From: Trichlorobacter lovleyi SZ
Lineage (GTDB): Bacteria; Desulfobacterota; Desulfuromonadia; Geobacterales; Pseudopelobacteraceae
Reading direction: 5' to 3'
Assembly (NCBI RefSeq): GCF_000020385.1
Contig: NC_010814.1
Location: forward strand, 3,780,001-3,812,000
Length of the DNA stretch: 32,000 bases
Part shown: piece after piece, positions 16,562 to 27,728 of the stretch
Numbering within the stretch: position 1 is the stretch's first letter
Layout: every line of letters starts with the position of its first letter
Translations under genes and position numbers: made by a program
Notes under the pieces: model-generated
What the model saw: only the letters and a program-made list of their open reading frames with translations
Database searches by the model: none
Told to the model about the DNA's origin: nothing

Positions 16562-17323
16562 ATGGAAAAACTGATTATTGCATTTCTGCTGATGAGCTTG
16601 ACCGTTCCGGCCTGGGCTGCTGAAAAGAAATCTCCTCAAACGATAACCGCTATTGAATATGCGTCTCCCGAACAATCTGTCTGGACGACTCGCACCTATA
16701 CTAACGGTGAACCGGCCAATCCGTTGCTGCGCGTGGCAGAGATACTATTTTCAAAAGCTGGCATCCCTTGGCGCAGCCACAGTTATCCAGCTGCCAGGAT
16801 GTTCAAAAGCTTGCAGGACGGCACGGCACAGTTTTCAATGTTGGTTAAAGCTCCGGCCTTACAGGAGTGTTGCTTACTAAGCCACAAGCCCGTAACTGTT
16901 CTGCAAATCCGGGCATATCATCTTGACGGCACGGCACCGATTAAAAATCTCAACGATTTGACAGGCAAGAACATCATTACCATCCTTGGTTACAGCTACG
17001 GTAGCCTGTCCAGATTCTTGGACGACAAACGTAATCGTATCAATAAAAACGTCGTGCAGACCCATGCTGCGGCATTCAAAATGCTGGCGTTGCGACGCGC
17101 CGATTATGTGATTGATTATGTTGGACCGGCTTCCGAAGTTCTCGTCACCGCGCCCATACCGGATATCCGCTGGGAAGTCCTGTCGCGACAGGATGTACAC
17201 CTGATACTTGCCAAGAATTATCCCGACGCTCCTAAAGTAATGGCCCGCCTGGAGGCTATTGCCGCCACAATCGATATTGAAAGGATTCTTTGGGAAGCTC
17301 AACAAAGGAATATGAATCCATGA
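16562..17323 (+). CDS. periplasmic family-3 solute-binding-protein-like protein (orphan, no permease nearby)
   Basis: ATG 16562 after AAGGGG. Signal peptide MEKLIIAFLLMSLTVPAWA. Length and layout fit a type-3 binding protein. Visibly less GC-rich than its neighbours. Confidence 0.75.
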   Translation: MEKLIIAFLLMSLTVPAWAAEKKSPQTITAIEYASPEQSVWTTRTYTNGEPANPLLRVAEILFSKAGIPWRSHSYPAARMFKSLQDGTAQFSMLVKAPALQECCLLSHKPVTVLQIRAYHLDGTAPIKNLNDLTGKNIITILGYSYGSLSRFLDDKRNRINKNVVQTHAAAFKMLALRRADYVIDYVGPASEVLVTAPIPDIRWEVLSRQDVHLILAKNYPDAPKVMARLEAIAATIDIERILWEAQQRNMNP

Positions 17324-17760
17324 GCCGTATCCAGGCCGAGCAACTGGCCCTGGCCCATTCAGAGTCCGGTCTGCATTGCGCCGAATCTGTGGCCTCAGCC
17401 ATCACAAAACTGTTTTGCCCCGACCAGGCCGGGATCGTCTGCCGGATGGCAACCGGCTTTGGCGGCGGTCTGGCCGGTTCCCGCCAGGAGGCCTGCGGTG
17501 CATTGACCGGCGGCGTGCTTGCCATCGGTCTGCTCTGTGGCAGGACTACGCCGGAACAGGACCGGGAGACGGCCTACCGGATCAGCACCGCCTACCGGGA
17601 GCGGTTCATGGCACGCTTCGGCGCCAGCATCTGCCAGACCCTGCGGGACGGTTTCACCACTGACGATACCAGAACCGCCTGCCGTTCCCTGACTGCCGAA
17701 GCAGCAGGGATGCTGTATGATCTCTTGCAGGAGCATGGCTATGCGGTGAACCGCTTTTGA
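17320..17760 (+). CDS. C_GCAxxG_C_C family (putative redox-active) protein
   Basis: ATGA overlap with the upstream stop. Family signature Cys pattern: LHCAESV, GFGGG, ACGALTGG, plus two further Cys (SICQ, TACR). Confidence 0.8.
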   Translation: MSRIQAEQLALAHSESGLHCAESVASAITKLFCPDQAGIVCRMATGFGGGLAGSRQEACGALTGGVLAIGLLCGRTTPEQDRETAYRISTAYRERFMARFGASICQTLRDGFTTDDTRTACRSLTAEAAGMLYDLLQEHGYAVNRF

Positions 17761-18056: not shown

Positions 18057-18188
18057 TGCATGCCATCAAAAACGCGCTACATTATCTTCATAAAGCAGCA
18101 ACTTCAGATGGTATCCGACTGGGCAGACCGAGAACCGGCTTTCAAATAACGTGCAGCAACCTTGAAGCATGCGGCAAAGGAGAGGGAT

Positions 18189-19193
18189 ATGCGTGTTCAT
18201 ACCGGCATAATCATTGGTTGGCTGGCCCTTGCCCTGTCCAGTCAGCCGGCACAACCGCTGGCTGCGGCTGAATTTGAATTTCTGCCCGATCATCCTGGTG
18301 GCTTCAGTGCCACGGCAACCGTCAGCAATGTGCCGGTCAGGAAACTCAGCAAGGCCGATGCCGCAGCCTTTAAGAAAAAGCTGGAACAGCTGCGCAACCT
18401 GCTGGCCAAACAACCGGCGCTGCAGGCCCCCAAAGGGGTGGAGATCATCGGCTACTTCAGGCCGCTTGATGAATTCCCCACGGCCCAGAACCTGCCGGTA
18501 CCCGGCTTCGGCTACCTCAGGTTCCACTTCTATCACCGCGCCAAAAACGGCAAACCGGTCAGGATCTGTTGCACCACCGATGAGATCCATGCCTCAATCA
18601 ATGATCCTGACCAGAGCTTTGAGGTCTATGGCAGCAGGGAGTTTGCCACCAAGACCTTTTATGAACCCGACCTGGTGGGGCAGGTGGATGGTTTTCCACT
18701 CTACCGGACCGCCGGCGGGGATGAACTGCTGGTATTCAACCGTGGCACGGCACGGCCCTGGCTCCCGGTTACCCGGGAGGAGTACGTCACGGCCTGGCTG
18801 ACGTTCTGGCAGAAACAGGTACAGGAATCCGTACCGCAGGACACGATCACCCCGGAGATTGTCAGGCGCCACCAGCAGGCCCTGGCACAGATGAAGCCGG
18901 AGGAACGGACCATGCAGGCCCGTTCGCTGACCTGGGATGTCTATGAACCGACCCTGGCCCCGGTTGGCAGCGCTGAAGGCAGGCCCCTGGTACGGGTCAA
19001 CCCGGACTGGTTTGACCCCGGCCTGCCGCGCAGTGCCATACAGCTGCTGGTGCTCAGGTTCAGCACAACCGGCCTGATGGACCCGATCCAGCCCGGACCG
19101 TCGAAAACCGGCAATGTCAGTGCCTACCGGGTCTGGCAGGTGTTGCACAGCTCAAACTGGAAAGAGGTCAGCACTGTTTTGACCACCAGGTAA
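18189..19193 (+). CDS. secreted hypothetical protein (no recognisable domain)
   Basis: ATG 18189 after AAGGAGAGGG. Signal peptide MRVHTGIIIGWLALALSSQPAQPLAAA. 334 aa, GC3-rich. Ends 19 nt before the frnE-like start. Confidence 0.75.
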   Translation: MRVHTGIIIGWLALALSSQPAQPLAAAEFEFLPDHPGGFSATATVSNVPVRKLSKADAAAFKKKLEQLRNLLAKQPALQAPKGVEIIGYFRPLDEFPTAQNLPVPGFGYLRFHFYHRAKNGKPVRICCTTDEIHASINDPDQSFEVYGSREFATKTFYEPDLVGQVDGFPLYRTAGGDELLVFNRGTARPWLPVTREEYVTAWLTFWQKQVQESVPQDTITPEIVRRHQQALAQMKPEERTMQARSLTWDVYEPTLAPVGSAEGRPLVRVNPDWFDPGLPRSAIQLLVLRFSTTGLMDPIQPGPSKTGNVSAYRVWQVLHSSNWKEVSTVLTTR

Positions 19194-19212
19194 ACTGCAG
19201 GGGGAGAACACC

Positions 19213-19821
19213 ATGGATAACGGCCCCACCATAGTAGAGGTCTTTTTCGATTACATCTGACCCTGGTGCTACCTCGGTACCGTGCGTACCGAACGCCTGC
19301 AACGGGAACACGGCGTGCAACTGCGCTGGAGCGCCTTCCCGCTCCACCCCGAAACCCCGCTGGAAGGAAGGGAGCTTGCCGAGCTCTTTGCCGGACGGGA
19401 GGCCATGATCCGCGACATGCAGGCCCGGTTGCTGCAGGTTGCCGCGATCGAGGGGGTGCCGCTGATAGAACGAAGCCGCACCTACAACAGTCGGCTGGCC
19501 CAGGAGCTGGGCAAATGGGCAGAGGCGCAGGGACACGGCAATCAGTTCCACCAGGCAGTCTACCGGGCCTTTTTCGTAGACGGGGTCAACATTGCGCTGG
19601 TTGATGAATTGGTGCGGATCTCCACAGCCGTTGGCCTGCCAGCGGATCAGACCCGGACGGTGCTGGAAGAGCGGAGTTATGCCGCGTCAGTGGATGCCGA
19701 CTGGCAGCGGGCCATGGAACTGCACATTACCGCCGTGCCGACGCACCTCTGCGGAGACAGGCGCCTGAGCGGTTTCGCAGCCTATGAAGATTTTGAGCGC
19801 CTGATCAGAAAGAATCCATAA
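19213..19821 (+). CDS. DsbA/FrnE-family thiol-disulfide oxidoreductase with in-frame TGA at the first active-site Cys position (candidate selenoprotein, U-P-W-C)
   Basis: ATG 19213 follows GGGGAG. It reads MDNGPTIVEVFFDYI-TGA(19258-19260)-PWCYLGTVRTERL.. in the same frame as ORF-track 19282..19821. FrnE homologues carry F/SD..CPWCY at exactly this place. A hairpin lies 13 nt downstream of the TGA. Confidence 0.65.
19265..19297 (+). promoter_or_regulatory. SECIS-like stem-loop immediately downstream of the in-frame TGA
   Basis: Upper stem UCGGUAC (19274-19280) pairs with GUACCGA (19286-19292); the loop CGUGC contains GU. A possible lower stem pairs GGUG (19265-19268) with CGCC (19294-19297). 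Confidence 0.45.
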
Positions 19822-19874
19822 ACTCTTGTGCAGAACAATCAAGGCGGCCGGTTGGCCGCCTTTTTGATTAAAGT
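19746..19874 (+). repeat. direct repeat copy 1 (functional 3' end of frnE-like gene plus terminator)
   Basis: Hand alignment with 21112-21240 gives 18 differences in ~122 positions. Encodes ..LCGDRRLSGFAAYEDFERLIRKNP*. Confidence 0.8.
19843..19865 (+). terminator. rho-independent terminator of the frnE-like gene
   Basis: GGCGGCC-ggtt-GGCCGCC followed by TTTTT, 22 nt after the stop codon. Confidence 0.75.
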
Positions 19875-19906: not shown

Positions 19907-20030
19907 GGGTATTTCAGGGTATATTTATGGGTAACGCCGCCCCGCAATGTGAATCAAGACAGGGGTATCTGGAACAACATGGCTCCGGTAAGGGGACGTG
20001 GTATTCGGTGGGGAGATAAGCTGGTGGTAT
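19907..20030 (+). repeat. cluster of six GGGTAT/GGTAT short direct repeats upstream of and within the 5' end of the HTH gene
   Basis: GGGTAT at 19907, 19917 and 19963; GGGTAA at 19929; GGTAT at 20000 and 20026. The first three are 10-12 nt apart. Confidence 0.3.
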
Positions 20031-20528
20031 AACAAAGGCGGCCGACTGGCCGCTGGGAGGCAGCCAAAATACAAACTCATAGCGCGTCAACAGCTCGACA
20101 AAACGCTGTCTGACTATGCCGTCATAAAACAGAATGCACCGCCGGTGAAAGGCTGGATACGTGCCATCCGTGAAGCACTCGGCATGTCCGGCAAACAGCT
20201 GGCAAACCGCCTGAAGGTCAGTCAGCCGCGCATCCCCAGGCTGGAACAGGATGAGCTGTCAGGCGTTGTCTCACTGAAAACCATGCGGCAAGCTGCCGAG
20301 GCAATGGATTGCGTGTTCGTCTACGCCATTGTTCCCCGCACCACGTTAGAGGAATCCGTCCGGGCGCAGGCTCGCAAGGTTGCCGAAGCCAGAGCGCAAA
20401 GGGTATCGCACTCCATGCTGCTCGAAGCGCAAAATCTGTCAGACAAGGAGCAACACGCCTCACTTGATGCTGCCGTTGATGAACTCGTGCGGGAGATGCC
20501 CAGGGAGCTCTGGGAAAGCACGCCATGA
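19998..20528 (+). CDS. XRE-type HTH protein, mobile mystery protein A-like (putative antitoxin/regulator of the Fic protein)
   Basis: ..GWIRAIREALGMSGKQLANRLKVSQPRIPRLEQDE.. is an HTH. There is an ATGA overlap with the Fic gene. The start is uncertain: GTG 19998 has an RBS-like AGGGGA only 1 nt away, and a terminator-like hairpin copy lies inside the first 20 codons. Confidence 0.7.
   Translation: MVFGGEISWWYNKGGRLAAGRQPKYKLIARQQLDKTLSDYAVIKQNAPPVKGWIRAIREALGMSGKQLANRLKVSQPRIPRLEQDELSGVVSLKTMRQAAEAMDCVFVYAIVPRTTLEESVRAQARKVAEARAQRVSHSMLLEAQNLSDKEQHASLDAAVDELVREMPRELWESTP
20037..20053 (+). repeat. third copy of the terminator hairpin (GGCGGCC-gact-GGCCGC), without T tract
   Basis: The 23-mer aacaaaggcggccgactggccgc (20031-20053) differs at 1 position from 21204-21226 and at 4 positions from 19837-19859. 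Confidence 0.6.
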
Positions 20529-21109
20529 ACTTTGAGTATCCAGATGGGGCAACACCGCTTGACGCAGATGAAGCGCAAGGTCTGCTGCTTTCCCACATCA
20601 CCAGCCGGGGAGAACTGGACCGCTGGGAGCAGGAAAACATCAGCGAGGCCGAGGCATGGGCATTTCGCCGCAAGCCGAAAGATATCCTCACCATCGACTT
20701 TCTCAAGCGAATGCACAAAAGGATGTTTGGCACTGTCTGGCGCTGGGCAGGAGAAAGACGCACCAGCGGAAAGAATATCGGCGTTGATGTATGGCAGATA
20801 GACACCGGCTTGCAGAATCTCTGTGCCGACTGCGCCATCTGGATTGCATACGGCACCTATCCACCGGATGAGATAGCAGCACGCTTTCATCACCGGCTTA
20901 CCGCAATCCACCCCTTTCCCAACGGCAACGGACGCCATGCCCGGCTGATGACCGATATTCTGCTGGTGCATCTCTTGGGGCAGCCGCGTTTTAGCTGGGG
21001 AAGCGGCAATCTGGTTAATGCCGGTGACTGCCGGCAACAGTATATCAATGCACTCCGTGCCGCCGACCGGCTCGATTACAGCCTGTTGCTGGCGTTTGTA
21101 CGCTCATGA
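20525..21109 (+). CDS. Fic-domain protein, mobile mystery protein B-like
   Basis: Fic motif HPFPNGNGRHAR (HxFxxGNGRxxR, with Asn where AMPylating Fic proteins usually have Asp/Glu). 194 aa, translationally coupled to the HTH gene. Confidence 0.88.
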   Translation: MNFEYPDGATPLDADEAQGLLLSHITSRGELDRWEQENISEAEAWAFRRKPKDILTIDFLKRMHKRMFGTVWRWAGERRTSGKNIGVDVWQIDTGLQNLCADCAIWIAYGTYPPDEIAARFHHRLTAIHPFPNGNGRHARLMTDILLVHLLGQPRFSWGSGNLVNAGDCRQQYINALRAADRLDYSLLLAFVRS

Positions 21110-21111
21110 TT

Positions 21112-21240
21112 CCCTGTGCGGAGGCAGGCGCCTGAGCGGCTTCGGGGCCTATGAAGACTTTGCGCGTCTGATCGGGAAGAATGGGTAAGCTCTTGTGCAG
21201 AACAACAAAGGCGGCCGATTGGCCGCCTTTTGAATTCAAG
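21112..21240 (+). repeat. direct repeat copy 2 (orphan frnE 3' fragment plus terminator)
   Basis: Starts 2 nt after the Fic stop codon. Keeps an open tail LCGGRRLSGFGAYEDFARLIGKNG*, the stop codon and the hairpin. Confidence 0.8.
21210..21231. terminator. rho-independent terminator (copy 2), positioned to serve convergent genes
   Basis: GGCGGCC-gatt-GGCCGCC-TTTT. The minus-strand 280-aa gene stops at 21248, 17 nt away. Confidence 0.65.
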
Positions 21241-21247
21241 AAAGCTG

Positions 21248-22090
21248 CTACCGAAATTCTAGGAGTGCTGGAGATTTTTTAGAAATATTAAACCAGACAT
21301 TCGGCGTGTTAATGATCCATTTTAGTGTAAAGCCGCAATGAATGGCAGCTGCTATGAAAGCGCCATTACTAACATAATCGTCTTCCACACCTTTCAAGGT
21401 TGCCCACCGCTTAACGCGACGCTTCAACGTATAACTGTCCATAGATCTGTTGAGTGTTTTTATTTTGTTGCATCCCTTCAGCCACTCGCAACACAGTCTG
21501 AACTGTTCTAGTCCTGTGGCCTCAAGTTCTGAACGCAGGTTAAGGTACTCTTGCCGGTTTTCCTCTGCGGTCTTTTGCCAATCTGCGGTGAATCGTATGC
21601 CGTTGTGCGTCAGATAGGGTTCTTTGGATATTGCAGCAAGGAAGTCCTCATGTGATGGGATTGATAATACGAACGCAGGAGAGAAATTATCAGTGTCGCG
21701 TATTGTCCTACTGAGGCCTTCTTGCTGTGACGATGCCCTGACTGGGTCATCCTCTTCTTTGGTACTTAAGGGTGTATAGTTTGCTGCGGCGGTAGGGAGT
21801 ACCTGCTGCTTTTTCGCTGCAGCGAGAAGTGCATCCCAACACTTGAAGCCAAGAGTCTGTGCCACCTGATTGTAGGCATGCCCCAAAGGCAGTTTGTTTC
21901 CTAAAGGCTGTTCAAGCCGGTACTTTTTTACGGCTGTCTTGATCTGGTCGACAGCGGCCAAAGAGTCAGGTTTGGGGAGAGATACAACGTCGATCTTGGA
22001 TGCAATGCTTTCCGGTTTACTGATGAACGTTTCTGATACGGACTTCAGTGCTCCGCTGTCTGCGGCAGAATAGATGGTCTTCTTTGGCAT
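21248..22090 (-). CDS. hypothetical protein, 280 aa, no recognisable domain; lies in an AT-rich islet
   Basis: ATG 22090 lies 8 nt after GGAGGA; the ORF-track TTG 22114 is less likely. Long clean ORF in a region visibly more AT-rich than the rest of the window. Confidence 0.7.
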   Translation of the reverse strand: MPKKTIYSAADSGALKSVSETFISKPESIASKIDVVSLPKPDSLAAVDQIKTAVKKYRLEQPLGNKLPLGHAYNQVAQTLGFKCWDALLAAAKKQQVLPTAAANYTPLSTKEEDDPVRASSQQEGLSRTIRDTDNFSPAFVLSIPSHEDFLAAISKEPYLTHNGIRFTADWQKTAEENRQEYLNLRSELEATGLEQFRLCCEWLKGCNKIKTLNRSMDSYTLKRRVKRWATLKGVEDDYVSNGAFIAAAIHCGFTLKWIINTPNVWFNISKKSPALLEFR

Positions 22091-22391
22091 ATCCAAGTTC
22101 CTCCATGAGCGCAATTAAGTACGCCATTAGCTGCGGAGAAACACCCTATGTAAAGTGTGGACTTTCGCGAGGTGTTTTCCAATTCGAATAAGAACCATTT
22201 TTCGTCAGTTGTCTGCGTTACTGACAGTTCTCATCCCAATCGGAAAATCTGGGGGTGAGATGAACCGCTTTACCATTCGTCATTGACGCGCAGACGGCGG
22301 GCGGGTTCAGCCTGATGCGTAAGGTTATTGTAAAAAATGTTGGGCGTCAAGGGAGTTGTCAGTCATGTAAACAATCTGCAAATTCAAAAGG

Positions 22392-25154: not shown

Positions 25155-27728
25155 ATGCCGGTATGTTATGAGGATCTTGCCGCAGTCCGGATCTTTGCCG
25201 GGCTGTCACCCCACCAGCTGGAGCGTATCAGCCAGCGGCTGCAGGAATGTGTCTTTTTGTCCGGCATGGTCATTTTGTCCAGAAATGCCCCACCGGAAAA
25301 GCTGTACCTGATCCTGGAGGGACGGGTCAGGGTCGAACTGCAGGACGGCAACGGCCAGATCTTTAATGTAACCGAGCTGGGCAGGGGTGAGATCATCGGT
25401 GAGCGGGCGATCCTGACCGGAGAAGCACGCACTGCCGATGTGCGGGCCATCAGCGAGGTACGGGCCGTCAGCCTGGGCCGCAGCGATTTTGAAGAGCTGC
25501 TCCATGAAACCCCGCAGATCTACGCCAATCTCTGCCGCATCCTGGCCTATCAGCTGGGCAGCTGGGCCCAACGCCATCAACGGGAGGAGCGGGAGCACCG
25601 CGATGCGATCACCAATGTCATCGGCTGGCAACTGCTGCCCGAGTTCGGCGCCTTTCCCGGCAACTCCTCCAACGTGCGAGCCCTCAACGCGCGGCTTGAA
25701 CAGCTGGGGCGCCAACGCAACCATGTGCTGATTACCGGTGAGCCGGGCACCTGGAAGGATCTGGCAGCACGCCTGATCCACTTTCATGCCGATGCGTCCT
25801 GTCCGGTGCTGTTTCTCGATTGCGCCACACCGCCGCCGGTGATCGGCAGCGAGCAGCGCGGCGCCATTGCGGTTAAGGATGCCCTGCTGCTTGAAATTGC
25901 CCAGGAGGCGGCCCTGTTCGGCCATGTCCCGGACGGAGCGGTCTATGCCCGGCGGATACGGCGCGGCATGCTGGAGCTTGCCGCCGGGGGAGATCTGATC
26001 CTGCGTAACGTGGACTGCCTGACTCCGGCGGTGCAGGAGCTGCTGGCCCAGTTCATGGCAAGCGGCCAGTTCAAACGGCGCGGTGAGCAGCGCCTGCGCA
26101 GCGCCGAGGTCAGGATCATCGCCACCAGCAGCGAGCCGCTGGCTGAACAGGCTGCGGCCGGCAGTTTCCATGGAGGGCTGTACCGCCGGCTGGCAACGGA
26201 GCGCTTGGAGATGGCGCCGCTGCGTGAGCGCAAGAAGGATATCCCGCTGATCGCCCGCAGCCTGCTGTCCAGCCTCAACGCCAAGCACCACAAGCAGGTG
26301 CGGCGGATCTCCCAGGATGCCCTGAACCGCCTGGTGGACCACGATTGGCCGCTTAACGGCAGCGAGCTGTACCAGGTCATGAGCCGCGCCGTGGTGGTCT
26401 GCAACGCCGACGAGATCCAGGCGGAACATATCTTTCTGCAGGGGCAGTCCTTCGGCGGCCGCTTCAACCTGCTCTCGCTGCCGTCGGTGGAACGGCTGGC
26501 CCGTCGCCCTGATTTCCCCCGTCTGCTGCGCTGGACGACCGTGCCGCTGTTTCTGCTGGTGACGGGCTACACCCTGGCCGGTCCCCGCACCGGCAATGCC
26601 GCCAATCTGGCGGTCTGGACCCTCTGGTGGCCGGCCCTGCTTGCCACCGCCTTTCTGGTGGCGCGGGGCTGGTGCAGCTACTGTCCGCTGGAGGCGATCG
26701 GCGAGTTTGTCGGCGTCAAGACGCGGGTCACCCATGAACCGATGCAGTGGCTGAAAAAGTGGGGTGCGGCGATCAGCCTGGCCGGGATGATCTTGATACT
26801 GCTGGTAGAACAGGCCACCGGCATGTTTTCCCATGCCCTGGCCACCGGCATCCTGCTGGCCGGGCTGCTGGCTGCCACGGCCATGGCCGACCTGATCATC
26901 GGCCGGCGGGGCTGGTGCAAGTTTCTCTGTCCGCTGGGCCGGATCGTCAGCCTGGTGTCACGGATTTCCCTGCTTGAGATGCACAGCAACCGCACGGTCT
27001 GCGTCAGCCGCTGCCGGGTTGACGACTGCGTCAAGGAACGGGGCTGCCCGATGGGGTTGCACCCCACCGGCATCGATAACTCCGACCATTGCGTACTCTG
27101 CCTCAACTGTGTACGCAGCTGCCCGCACCACTCCATGCAGCTCGACCTGCGCAATCCGGCCTGGGGCCTGCTCAACCGCTCCCGCCACGGTTTTTATGAA
27201 GCCCTGTTCAGCGTGGCGCTCTGTGGTACGATTGCCGCGGCCAAAGGGACTCCGCTCCTGATGGGACGGGCCAAGGAGGTCTTTCCTTCCACCGTCTGGA
27301 GCGGGCCTGAATCTGCCCTGGCCGTGGGGATGGTGCTGCTGTATTGCCTGGCGGCGATGGCCTGCTCAGGGACGGCACCCGCGCTGCGCCGGCGGCAGGC
27401 CTTTACGGTCTATGGCCTGGCCTACCTGCCGCTGGCGATCACCGGCCTGTTCATGATCTACTTCCGCGCCCTGGTTGAGGGGGGAGCGCAGCTGATACCG
27501 CTGCTCTTGACCGCCTTCGGCCTGATTCAGCTGACCGATCCGGCCCGGCTCACCCCGGAACTGGGCACCCTGCGTCTGTTGATCTATCCCGGCATCCTCG
27601 CCGGGATGACCTTCTCGCTGGTTGCCCTGGCCAGCCTGCAACGGCAGCACAATCTGGGCGGACCCGGCCTGCTGGGCCACCGCCTGCTGCTGCTGCTGAC
27701 CACTGGCGTCTTCCTCGTCATTCTTTAA
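25155..27728 (+). CDS. fusion protein: cNMP-binding domain + degenerate sigma-54-activator-type AAA+ domain + NapH-like multi-TM 4Fe-4S polyferredoxin domain
   Basis: 857-aa ORF. N terminus is Crp-type cNMP-binding (LYLILEGRVRV, GEIIGERAILTGEARTADVRA). The middle is collinear with bEBP AAA+ (VLITGEPGTWKD, ALFGH, VRIIATS, LYRRL, PLRERKKDIPLIA, WPLNGSEL). The C terminus has about 8 or more TM segments with RGWCSYCPLE, RRGWCKFLCPLGRI, CVSRCRVDDCVKERGCP and CVLCLNCVRSCP. Confidence 0.85.
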   Translation: MPVCYEDLAAVRIFAGLSPHQLERISQRLQECVFLSGMVILSRNAPPEKLYLILEGRVRVELQDGNGQIFNVTELGRGEIIGERAILTGEARTADVRAISEVRAVSLGRSDFEELLHETPQIYANLCRILAYQLGSWAQRHQREEREHRDAITNVIGWQLLPEFGAFPGNSSNVRALNARLEQLGRQRNHVLITGEPGTWKDLAARLIHFHADASCPVLFLDCATPPPVIGSEQRGAIAVKDALLLEIAQEAALFGHVPDGAVYARRIRRGMLELAAGGDLILRNVDCLTPAVQELLAQFMASGQFKRRGEQRLRSAEVRIIATSSEPLAEQAAAGSFHGGLYRRLATERLEMAPLRERKKDIPLIARSLLSSLNAKHHKQVRRISQDALNRLVDHDWPLNGSELYQVMSRAVVVCNADEIQAEHIFLQGQSFGGRFNLLSLPSVERLARRPDFPRLLRWTTVPLFLLVTGYTLAGPRTGNAANLAVWTLWWPALLATAFLVARGWCSYCPLEAIGEFVGVKTRVTHEPMQWLKKWGAAISLAGMILILLVEQATGMFSHALATGILLAGLLAATAMADLIIGRRGWCKFLCPLGRIVSLVSRISLLEMHSNRTVCVSRCRVDDCVKERGCPMGLHPTGIDNSDHCVLCLNCVRSCPHHSMQLDLRNPAWGLLNRSRHGFYEALFSVALCGTIAAAKGTPLLMGRAKEVFPSTVWSGPESALAVGMVLLYCLAAMACSGTAPALRRRQAFTVYGLAYLPLAITGLFMIYFRALVEGGAQLIPLLLTAFGLIQLTDPARLTPELGTLRLLIYPGILAGMTFSLVALASLQRQHNLGGPGLLGHRLLLLLTTGVFLVIL

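Follow-up and report, generated by a model that had tools for sequence, protein, structure and literature searches.

Here we report that a gene of Trichlorobacter (Geobacter) lovleyi SZ, which spans positions 19213-19821 of a 32-kb stretch of the genome, very probably encodes a selenoprotein in which the UGA at codon 16 is decoded as selenocysteine (Sec). The stretch is referred to as the window, and its positions serve as coordinates; features are on the plus strand unless stated otherwise. As judged from its sequence, the product is a cytoplasmic DsbA/FrnE-type thiol:disulfide oxidoreductase with a DSBA-like thioredoxin domain (COG2761/FrnE subgroup). The reading frame, the homology of the product, the conservation of the TGA, the coding signature upstream of it, a conserved and covarying hairpin downstream of it, and the match of that hairpin to the model of the bacterial selenocysteine insertion sequence (bSECIS) are established here.

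The coding sequence comprises 202 codons including Sec16 and encodes a DsbA/FrnE-like thiol:disulfide oxidoreductase without a signal peptide. It opens with ATG 19213, which is preceded at a distance of 6 nt by the purine-rich, Shine-Dalgarno-like sequence GGGGGAG (19200-19206); similar purine-rich sites lie upstream of the ATG in orthologues. The first 15 codons, MDNGPTIVEVFFDYI, are followed by the TGA at 19258-19260 and, in the same frame, by CCC TGG TGC (P-W-C) as part of PWCYLG. Translation downstream of the TGA begins PWCYLGTVRTERLQ and continues uninterrupted to the TAA at 19819-19821. Direct reading and translation thus reproduce what a first-pass annotation of the sequence had noted, namely the ATG with its ribosome-binding site, the TGA and the in-frame PWCYLG. 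The list of open reading frames (ORFs) contains for this region just a 179-aa, GTG-started ORF (19282-19821), which, as had also been pointed out, lacks the active site.

A full DSBA domain was obtained only when the TGA was read through; the 179-aa product is devoid of strand beta-1 and of the entire redox motif. With Cys modelled at residue 16, the protein matched Pfam family DSBA (PF01323) with 109.2 bits (cut-off 25.6; E=3e-31) over profile positions 2-190 of 191, and the best match among solved structures was FrnE of Deinococcus radiodurans (PDB 5cnw/5cp1; E=2.3e-20; query residues 8-190). The nearest further structures were Streptomyces SCO1869 and 2-hydroxychromene-2-carboxylate (HCCA) isomerase, and the matches to these three suggest a thioredoxin fold with an inserted helical domain. 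The U-P-W-C motif aligns on the CPWC of FrnE and of at least 10 full-length relatives, so that the TGA (Sec16, the first position of the motif) corresponds to Cys22 of FrnE. These alignments uphold the earlier assignment of the gene as DsbA/FrnE-like, with the N-terminal beta-strand and the CPWC motif in place and the TGA at the first Cys. The resolving cysteine of the UxxC motif, Cys19, is encoded by TGC at 19267-19269; P-W-C is present in all loci compared, and T10 and G11 are invariant columns of the ungapped, TGA-anchored nucleotide alignment. The CCG at 19738-19740 encodes Pro176, the cis-proline of the thioredoxin-fold active-site loop T-A-V-P, which aligns with G-V-P of FrnE; V175 and P176 are invariant in the protein alignment.

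The D. radiodurans protein is a cytoplasmic DsbA-like disulfide oxidoreductase/isomerase that, like the T. lovleyi protein, has no signal peptide. There is no hydrophobic leader at the N-terminus of the latter, and strand beta-1 (VEVFFDY) begins already at residue 7; the protein is therefore predicted to be cytoplasmic like FrnE. Both proteins have an identical CPWC active-site spacing and a cis-Pro loop. They differ in that the active site of FrnE contains Cys where that of T. lovleyi would contain Sec, and their sequences are clearly divergent where they align. They differ also in length (260 aa in FrnE, 202 aa in T. lovleyi): the alignment stops at residue 207 of FrnE, whose C-terminal region has no counterpart. 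This C-terminal tail of FrnE bears a second cysteine pair.

A search of protein collections yielded 3,795 relatives at E<=1e-10. Among the best 120, about 90 had been called at about 179 aa, starting just past the 5' arm of the hairpin, and about 30 at 198-207 aa (one at 256 aa). The full-length Cys homologues align from residue 1 of the 202-codon product. Over the active-site stretch, the full-length relatives read VEVFFDYICPWCYLG, and when aligned with the window, VEVFFDYICPWCYLGTVRT; they carry Cys precisely where the window has TGA and match the upstream frame residue for residue. The eight residues before the TGA (VEVFFDYI) and the nine residues after it (PWCYLGTVR) are identical to those of Cys-containing full-length homologues. 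The alignment with Cys-containing FrnE/COG2761 homologues that had been proposed as a check therefore places Cys exactly on the TGA codon. One database entry (P0119; locus L088, 203-826) shows Trp at this position (FFDYIWPWC). This is an artefact, as the Joint Genome Institute (JGI) pipeline had translated TGA as W, and the underlying DNA contains a TGA followed by the standard hairpin; the mistranslation could mislead alignments.

The codon was also compared in DNA sequences. When one genome per bacterial species was scanned, 575 relatives were confirmed; the best 80 loci (50 to 86% protein identity to the window) were kept. The homologous codon is TGA in 77 of these 80 loci and in the window (78 of 81 sequences). 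It is TGT in two metagenome-assembled genomes (MAGs) labelled Burkholderiales, and one locus that is cut by a contig end (L036) also has TGA; its label is Fibrobacteres, although the sequence resembles the Geobacter type. The identity of the flanking residues to those of Cys homologues, together with the same TGA in 78 of 81 sequences, shows that the match is not due to chance. Among the hosts are Geobacter argillaceus, Pelotalea chapellei and Pelovirga terrestris, as well as numerous MAGs with the labels Geobacteraceae, Desulfuromonadales, Desulfobacterales, Syntrophales, SAR324, Burkholderiales and Acidobacteriota. Geobacter argillaceus (ATCC BAA-1139) has two paralogues (L011 and L016) on two scaffolds, both with TGA and hairpin. 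The layout of ATG, TGA and hairpin recurs in a second T. lovleyi strain (CP058409.1), whose gene is likewise annotated as a 179-aa 'DsbA family protein'.

An in-frame ATG is located 6-15 codons upstream of the TGA in all 78 complete loci. Over the ten codons upstream of the TGA, the mean entropy is 1.36 bits at third positions, compared with 0.73 bits at first and 0.48 bits at second positions. Because variation is biased towards third positions, the stretch before the TGA must be subject to selection as protein-coding sequence, in frame with the downstream domain. No further stops or frameshifts were found in TGA-bearing orthologues. The comparison of TGA with TGC or TGT in relatives, which the first-pass annotation had suggested, was thus decided in favour of a conserved TGA (78 of 81) within an otherwise undisrupted gene.

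These data bear on two simpler explanations of the locus. The TGA could be a true stop, with the 179-aa protein from GTG 19282 as the functional product and the 15 upstream codons as an unrelated leader or untranslated sequence. Such a start is what every gene caller reports, and GTG is usable as a start codon, but the product would be without beta-1 and the whole CxxC site of its own domain, and the 15 upstream codons correspond by homology to the N-terminus of the Cys forms and show the substitution pattern of coding sequence. Moreover, the GTG (19282-19284), which corresponds to Val24 of the full-length product and to Val in full-length Cys forms, is preceded by no Shine-Dalgarno sequence, lies within the loop of the conserved hairpin described below, and is replaced by the non-start codons GGG, GGT, GGA or GTC in 16 of 79 orthologues. 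We consider this explanation very improbable. That a nonsense mutation from TGC or TGT to TGA had inactivated a DsbA-like gene would require a single base change only, and relatives with a Cys codon do exist. A pseudogene is, however, not expected to share its TGA with diverged sequences (78 of 81, at about 50-96% protein identity) that have no extra stops or frameshifts, to be under purifying selection on both sides of that codon, or to carry a covarying hairpin downstream of it, and the divergence among the orthologues excludes contamination by one sequence; the probability of this explanation is vanishingly small. The conservation of the TGA and the coding selection upstream of it therefore effectively exclude both a pseudogene and an independent 179-aa gene.

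The hairpin is located inside the coding sequence at 19274-19292. It consists of a 5' arm UCGGUAC (19274-19280) that starts 13 nt after the TGA, a loop CGUGC (19281-19285) that begins 20 nt after the UGA, and a 3' arm GUACCGA (19286-19292), which together form a 7-bp stem with a free energy of -8.7 kcal/mol for the hairpin alone. For comparison, the first 60 nt counted from the TGA were aligned without gaps for 79 Sec-form genes. The consensus structure predicted by RNAalifold for these orthologues is exactly the 7-bp hairpin. In its helix, 96.9% of the cells are paired, and six of the seven pairs show changes on both sides; for example, alignment pair 19/33 is GC in 37, AU in 36, GU in 6 and broken in none of the sequences. 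Pairing and covariation as high as observed were reached in 0 of 500 shuffles, and when the 3' arm was slid by 1-3 columns as a control, pairing fell to 26-47%. Changes in column 33, a synonymous third position (ACC/ACU), go along with those of a first position 14 nt upstream (GGU to AGU/AUU), which is indicative of selection acting on the RNA. The loop occurs as CGUGC, CGGGC, GGUGC, AGGUC, GGUCA and GGGAC; its second position is G, followed by U or G, in 79 of 79 sequences.

These properties were compared with the published description of bSECIS elements (PMC13188914), which have a loop of 3-9 nt, an upper stem of 4-16 bp, a distance of 16-37 nt from UGA to loop, a minimum free energy (MFE) of at most -7.5 kcal/mol, and a G within the first two loop positions that is usually followed by G or U. 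The hairpin of the window falls within all of these limits (loop, 5 nt; stem, 7 bp; G2-U3; spacing, 20 nt; -8.7 kcal/mol). It also resembles the SECIS elements of the E. coli fdhF/fdnG type and the bSECISearch consensus, which are stem-loops within the ORF directly 3' of the UGA and have a small loop with G followed by U, and its spacing and stability are within the limits of the consensus model. A difference from the E. coli elements is that comparative support is confined to the 7-bp upper stem, whereas no conservation is seen for a lower helix extending back to the UGA. A candidate lower stem (columns 5-12 with 42-49) is present in the MFE fold but was rejected: among the 79 sequences, only 76.9% of its cells are paired, there are few compensatory changes, and the pairs 5/49 and 8/46 are often broken (the latter in 44 of 79). 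The stem-loop of the first-pass annotation is accordingly retained with its 7-bp stem 13 nt after the TGA and the GU in its 5-nt loop, but without its possible 4-bp lower stem. The conservation and covariation of the hairpin, which had been named among the checks, speak in its favour (96.9% paired; six of seven pairs compensated), as does its fit to the published bSECIS limits.

Cys forms served as a natural control (n=8; six metagenome genes with TGC or TGT and the two TGT loci of the genome scan). A perfect stem is present in one of the eight Cys forms and in 62 of the 79 Sec forms (Fisher p = 4e-4, uncorrected for phylogeny). Several of the breaks in Cys forms affect pairs 18/34 or 23/29, which are paired in 79 of 79 Sec forms. 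At the same time, the peptide LGTVRT is unchanged in most of the eight Cys forms; since these residues are kept while the stem breaks, the hairpin does not simply follow from the protein sequence. Residues 22-26 vary in step with the stem (G-T..R-T, S-T..R-T/I, I-T..R-I/V). MAGs labelled Burkholderiales hold both forms of the gene, with TGA in L038 and L052 and TGT in L059 and L070; in the latter two, the hairpin is lost. A TGA-bearing sequence similar to L038 and L052 was found in an unlabelled 'uncultured bacterium' (L067). Two near-identical twins, L013:4028 (TGA) and L090 (TGT), have nearly the same N-terminal protein sequence and differ by one base in the codon; the hairpin sequence of L090 is that of L013 over the stretch shown.

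Several observations weigh against a Sec codon at this site. In a single-sequence fold of 19255-19320, the region is no better than its shuffles (z = +0.61); the hairpin is therefore not significant by itself, and its support comes from comparison. The covariation is in part confounded by coding constraints and shared ancestry, and the G-C and A-U states of pair 19/33 mostly follow clades. One Cys form (L092) retains a perfect hairpin; this hairpin and the L013/L090 twins suggest recent conversions between Sec and Cys. Neither a tRNA (ARAGORN) nor a sel gene was found in the 32-kb window, to which the search was confined. No match was obtained with Rfam at gathering thresholds in the window, so no curated SECIS model confirms the hairpin. 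As we know of no bacterial SECIS family in Rfam, the latter result is uninformative.

Readthrough of the UGA without Sec is a further explanation, either by a near-cognate Trp or Cys tRNA or in a reassigned code, with the hairpin as a generic stimulator of readthrough. The Trp in the JGI translation of one orthologue is in line with it. The position, however, is that of the catalytic Cys in CxxC, at which no residue but Cys or Sec would be functional; the host genomes use the standard code, and other genes of the window end in TGA (e.g., at 17758-17760 and 20526-20528). The hairpin fits the constraints on SelB-type bSECIS elements, and T. lovleyi SZ is a documented Sec user (PMC5029168). Readthrough of this kind is highly unlikely. 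That T. lovleyi SZ uses Sec rests on a published table (Peng et al. 2016; PMC5029168, Table S2), which lists G. lovleyi SZ as Sec-utilizing with 12 selenoproteins. Other Geobacter genomes encode SelD and FdhA selenoproteins and the Sec insertion machinery (PMC1794560 among others). A tRNA-Sec was not detected in any of the 88 fetched loci (ARAGORN).

We infer SelB binding, Sec insertion, the redox chemistry and the physiological substrate of the protein. In the proposed mechanism, which corresponds to ordinary bacterial Sec recoding, the hairpin at 19274-19292, which is part of the coding sequence and has its loop 20 nt past the UGA, would act as a bacterial SECIS. A complex of SelB, GTP and Sec-tRNA(Sec) would bind the apical part of the hairpin and deliver Sec as the UGA at 19258 enters the A site, and translation would then proceed through P-W-C into the rest of the DSBA domain. 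In the folded protein, Sec16 would stand at the start of helix 1 in place of the N-terminal Cys of the CxxC motif, which is exposed and nucleophilic, and may cycle between the selenolate/thiol state and a selenenylsulfide with Cys19 during thiol-disulfide exchange.

DsbA-like selenoproteins had been said to be predicted in earlier surveys, and this is borne out by reports from 2005 to 2026, which include deltaproteobacteria and other bacteria. A DsbA-like selenoprotein (COG2761) with a predicted SECIS was described from Sargasso Sea data (Zhang, Fomenko & Gladyshev 2005; PMC1088965), followed by representatives in Anaeromyxobacter dehalogenans, Desulfovibrio desulfuricans and Desulfotomaculum reducens (Zhang et al. 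2006; PMC1794560), where the family was not listed for the three Geobacter genomes included. A report of 2007 lists a DsbA-like selenoprotein of D. desulfuricans as 'Dde_1263 + upstream'. The family was found again as 'DsbA 1' (pfam01323, UxxC) in Global Ocean Sampling (GOS) data (Zhang & Gladyshev 2008; PMC2398784), in 41 organisms (Peng et al. 2016; PMC5029168), and as 'DsbA-like protein form 1' in a review of 2026 (PMC13188914), according to which nearly all such selenoprotein families rest on bioinformatics only. The published family shares with the T. lovleyi gene the PF01323 domain, Sec as the first residue of UxxC, an in-frame UGA upstream of a bSECIS that has a small loop and a conserved G, the wide occurrence of Cys homologues and anaerobic deltaproteobacterial hosts; there is no substantive difference. 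COG and Pfam assignments and the motif suggest that the gene belongs to the same subfamily as the published representatives (NIP15863.1 and AACY01178397). We did not find a DsbA-like selenoprotein gene of Geobacter or Trichlorobacter explicitly named in the literature. The T. lovleyi gene is a mis-annotated member of a selenoprotein family that has been catalogued since 2005, in an organism known to use Sec.

The gene neighbourhood was also inspected. Downstream of the gene, 20 nt past the stop codon, is an intrinsic-terminator-like hairpin of 9 bp (7 GC) followed by a T run (19841-19870; direct reading). Directly upstream is a 334-aa gene (18189-19193) without a Pfam or NCBIfam match, whose TAA (19191-19193) is separated from ATG 19213 by a 19-nt gap and which is probably co-transcribed with the selenoprotein gene. 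Opposite to it are two minus-strand ORFs (18066-18590 and 18594-19148; 184 and 174 aa) that are split only by a TGA (18594-18596); this pair (18066-19148) is probably GC-rich antisense noise. Two genes upstream of the selenoprotein gene, at 17320-17760, is a member of the C_GCAxxG_C_C '(seleno)protein' family (NCBIfam TIGR01909, 67 bits). It was rejected as a selenoprotein candidate, as it is a Cys form here and has no in-frame TGA.

Between the selenoprotein gene and the gene of an iron-containing alcohol dehydrogenase (Fe-ADH) are an HTH_3 gene (19998-20528), an overlapping Fic/DOC gene (20525-21109) and a gene of unknown function on the minus strand (21248-22114; 288 aa). These three genes are absent from the corresponding site of CP058409.1 (L089, 10540-10618), where the Fe-ADH gene follows directly, and 19998-22114 appears to be a Fic toxin/antitoxin-like module inserted specifically in this strain. 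Only the 334-aa upstream gene and the downstream Fe-ADH/AraC genes are common to both strains. Among the fetched loci, the neighbours in the window recur beside the gene nowhere outside T. lovleyi-like contigs, and the context provides no clue to function. Further downstream, at 25155-27728, an 857-aa protein is encoded in which a cyclic-nucleotide-binding domain and a sigma-54 AAA+ activator module occur together with a 4Fe-4S (Fer4_5) match in the C-terminal region; for an enhancer-binding protein, this domain composition is unusual. When the whole window was scanned for further long frames interrupted by TGA, the output was too noisy in this GC-rich DNA to provide additional selenoprotein candidates.

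The T. lovleyi gene adds no new mechanism and no new kind of protein, and the main value of this analysis is a correction of annotation. The 179-aa ORF is identical to ACD97234.1 (UniRef100_B3E2X4), a 'DSBA oxidoreductase' encoded on the 3.92-Mb chromosome of T. lovleyi SZ, and is also present, with the same neighbours, on a 99.8-kb contig of assembly GCA_047291845.1. ACD97234.1 is a gene-caller truncation: the Sec codon was taken for a stop, and the catalytic site is therefore missing, as it is in at least 90 clusters among the 120 best database relatives. The protein does not score above the cut-off of any NCBIfam model (the best, NF041057, scores 24.7 bits against 190), and the missing model would explain the repeated automated truncation. 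The whole FrnE-like clade is cut systematically to about 179 aa in GenBank and JGI and, as it has no NCBIfam selenoprotein model, is probably under-counted in selenoproteome surveys.

For the biology of the family, there is about an even chance that Sec rather than Cys is the default in the FrnE-like clade of Geobacterales, Desulfuromonadales and related Thermodesulfobacteriota (TGA in 77 of the best 80 species-level genomes), that repeated recent switches from Sec to Cys (as in the L013/L090 twins) were followed by decay of the SECIS (broken stem in seven of eight Cys forms), and that the SECIS within the ORF shapes the protein sequence; the evidence is compatible with this scenario and is not proof of it. 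The 79 Sec orthologues with a clean, covarying SECIS and the matched Cys forms constitute a well-sampled and deeply conserved Sec/Cys set, which could serve to test bSECIS models and to study the conversion of Sec to Cys.

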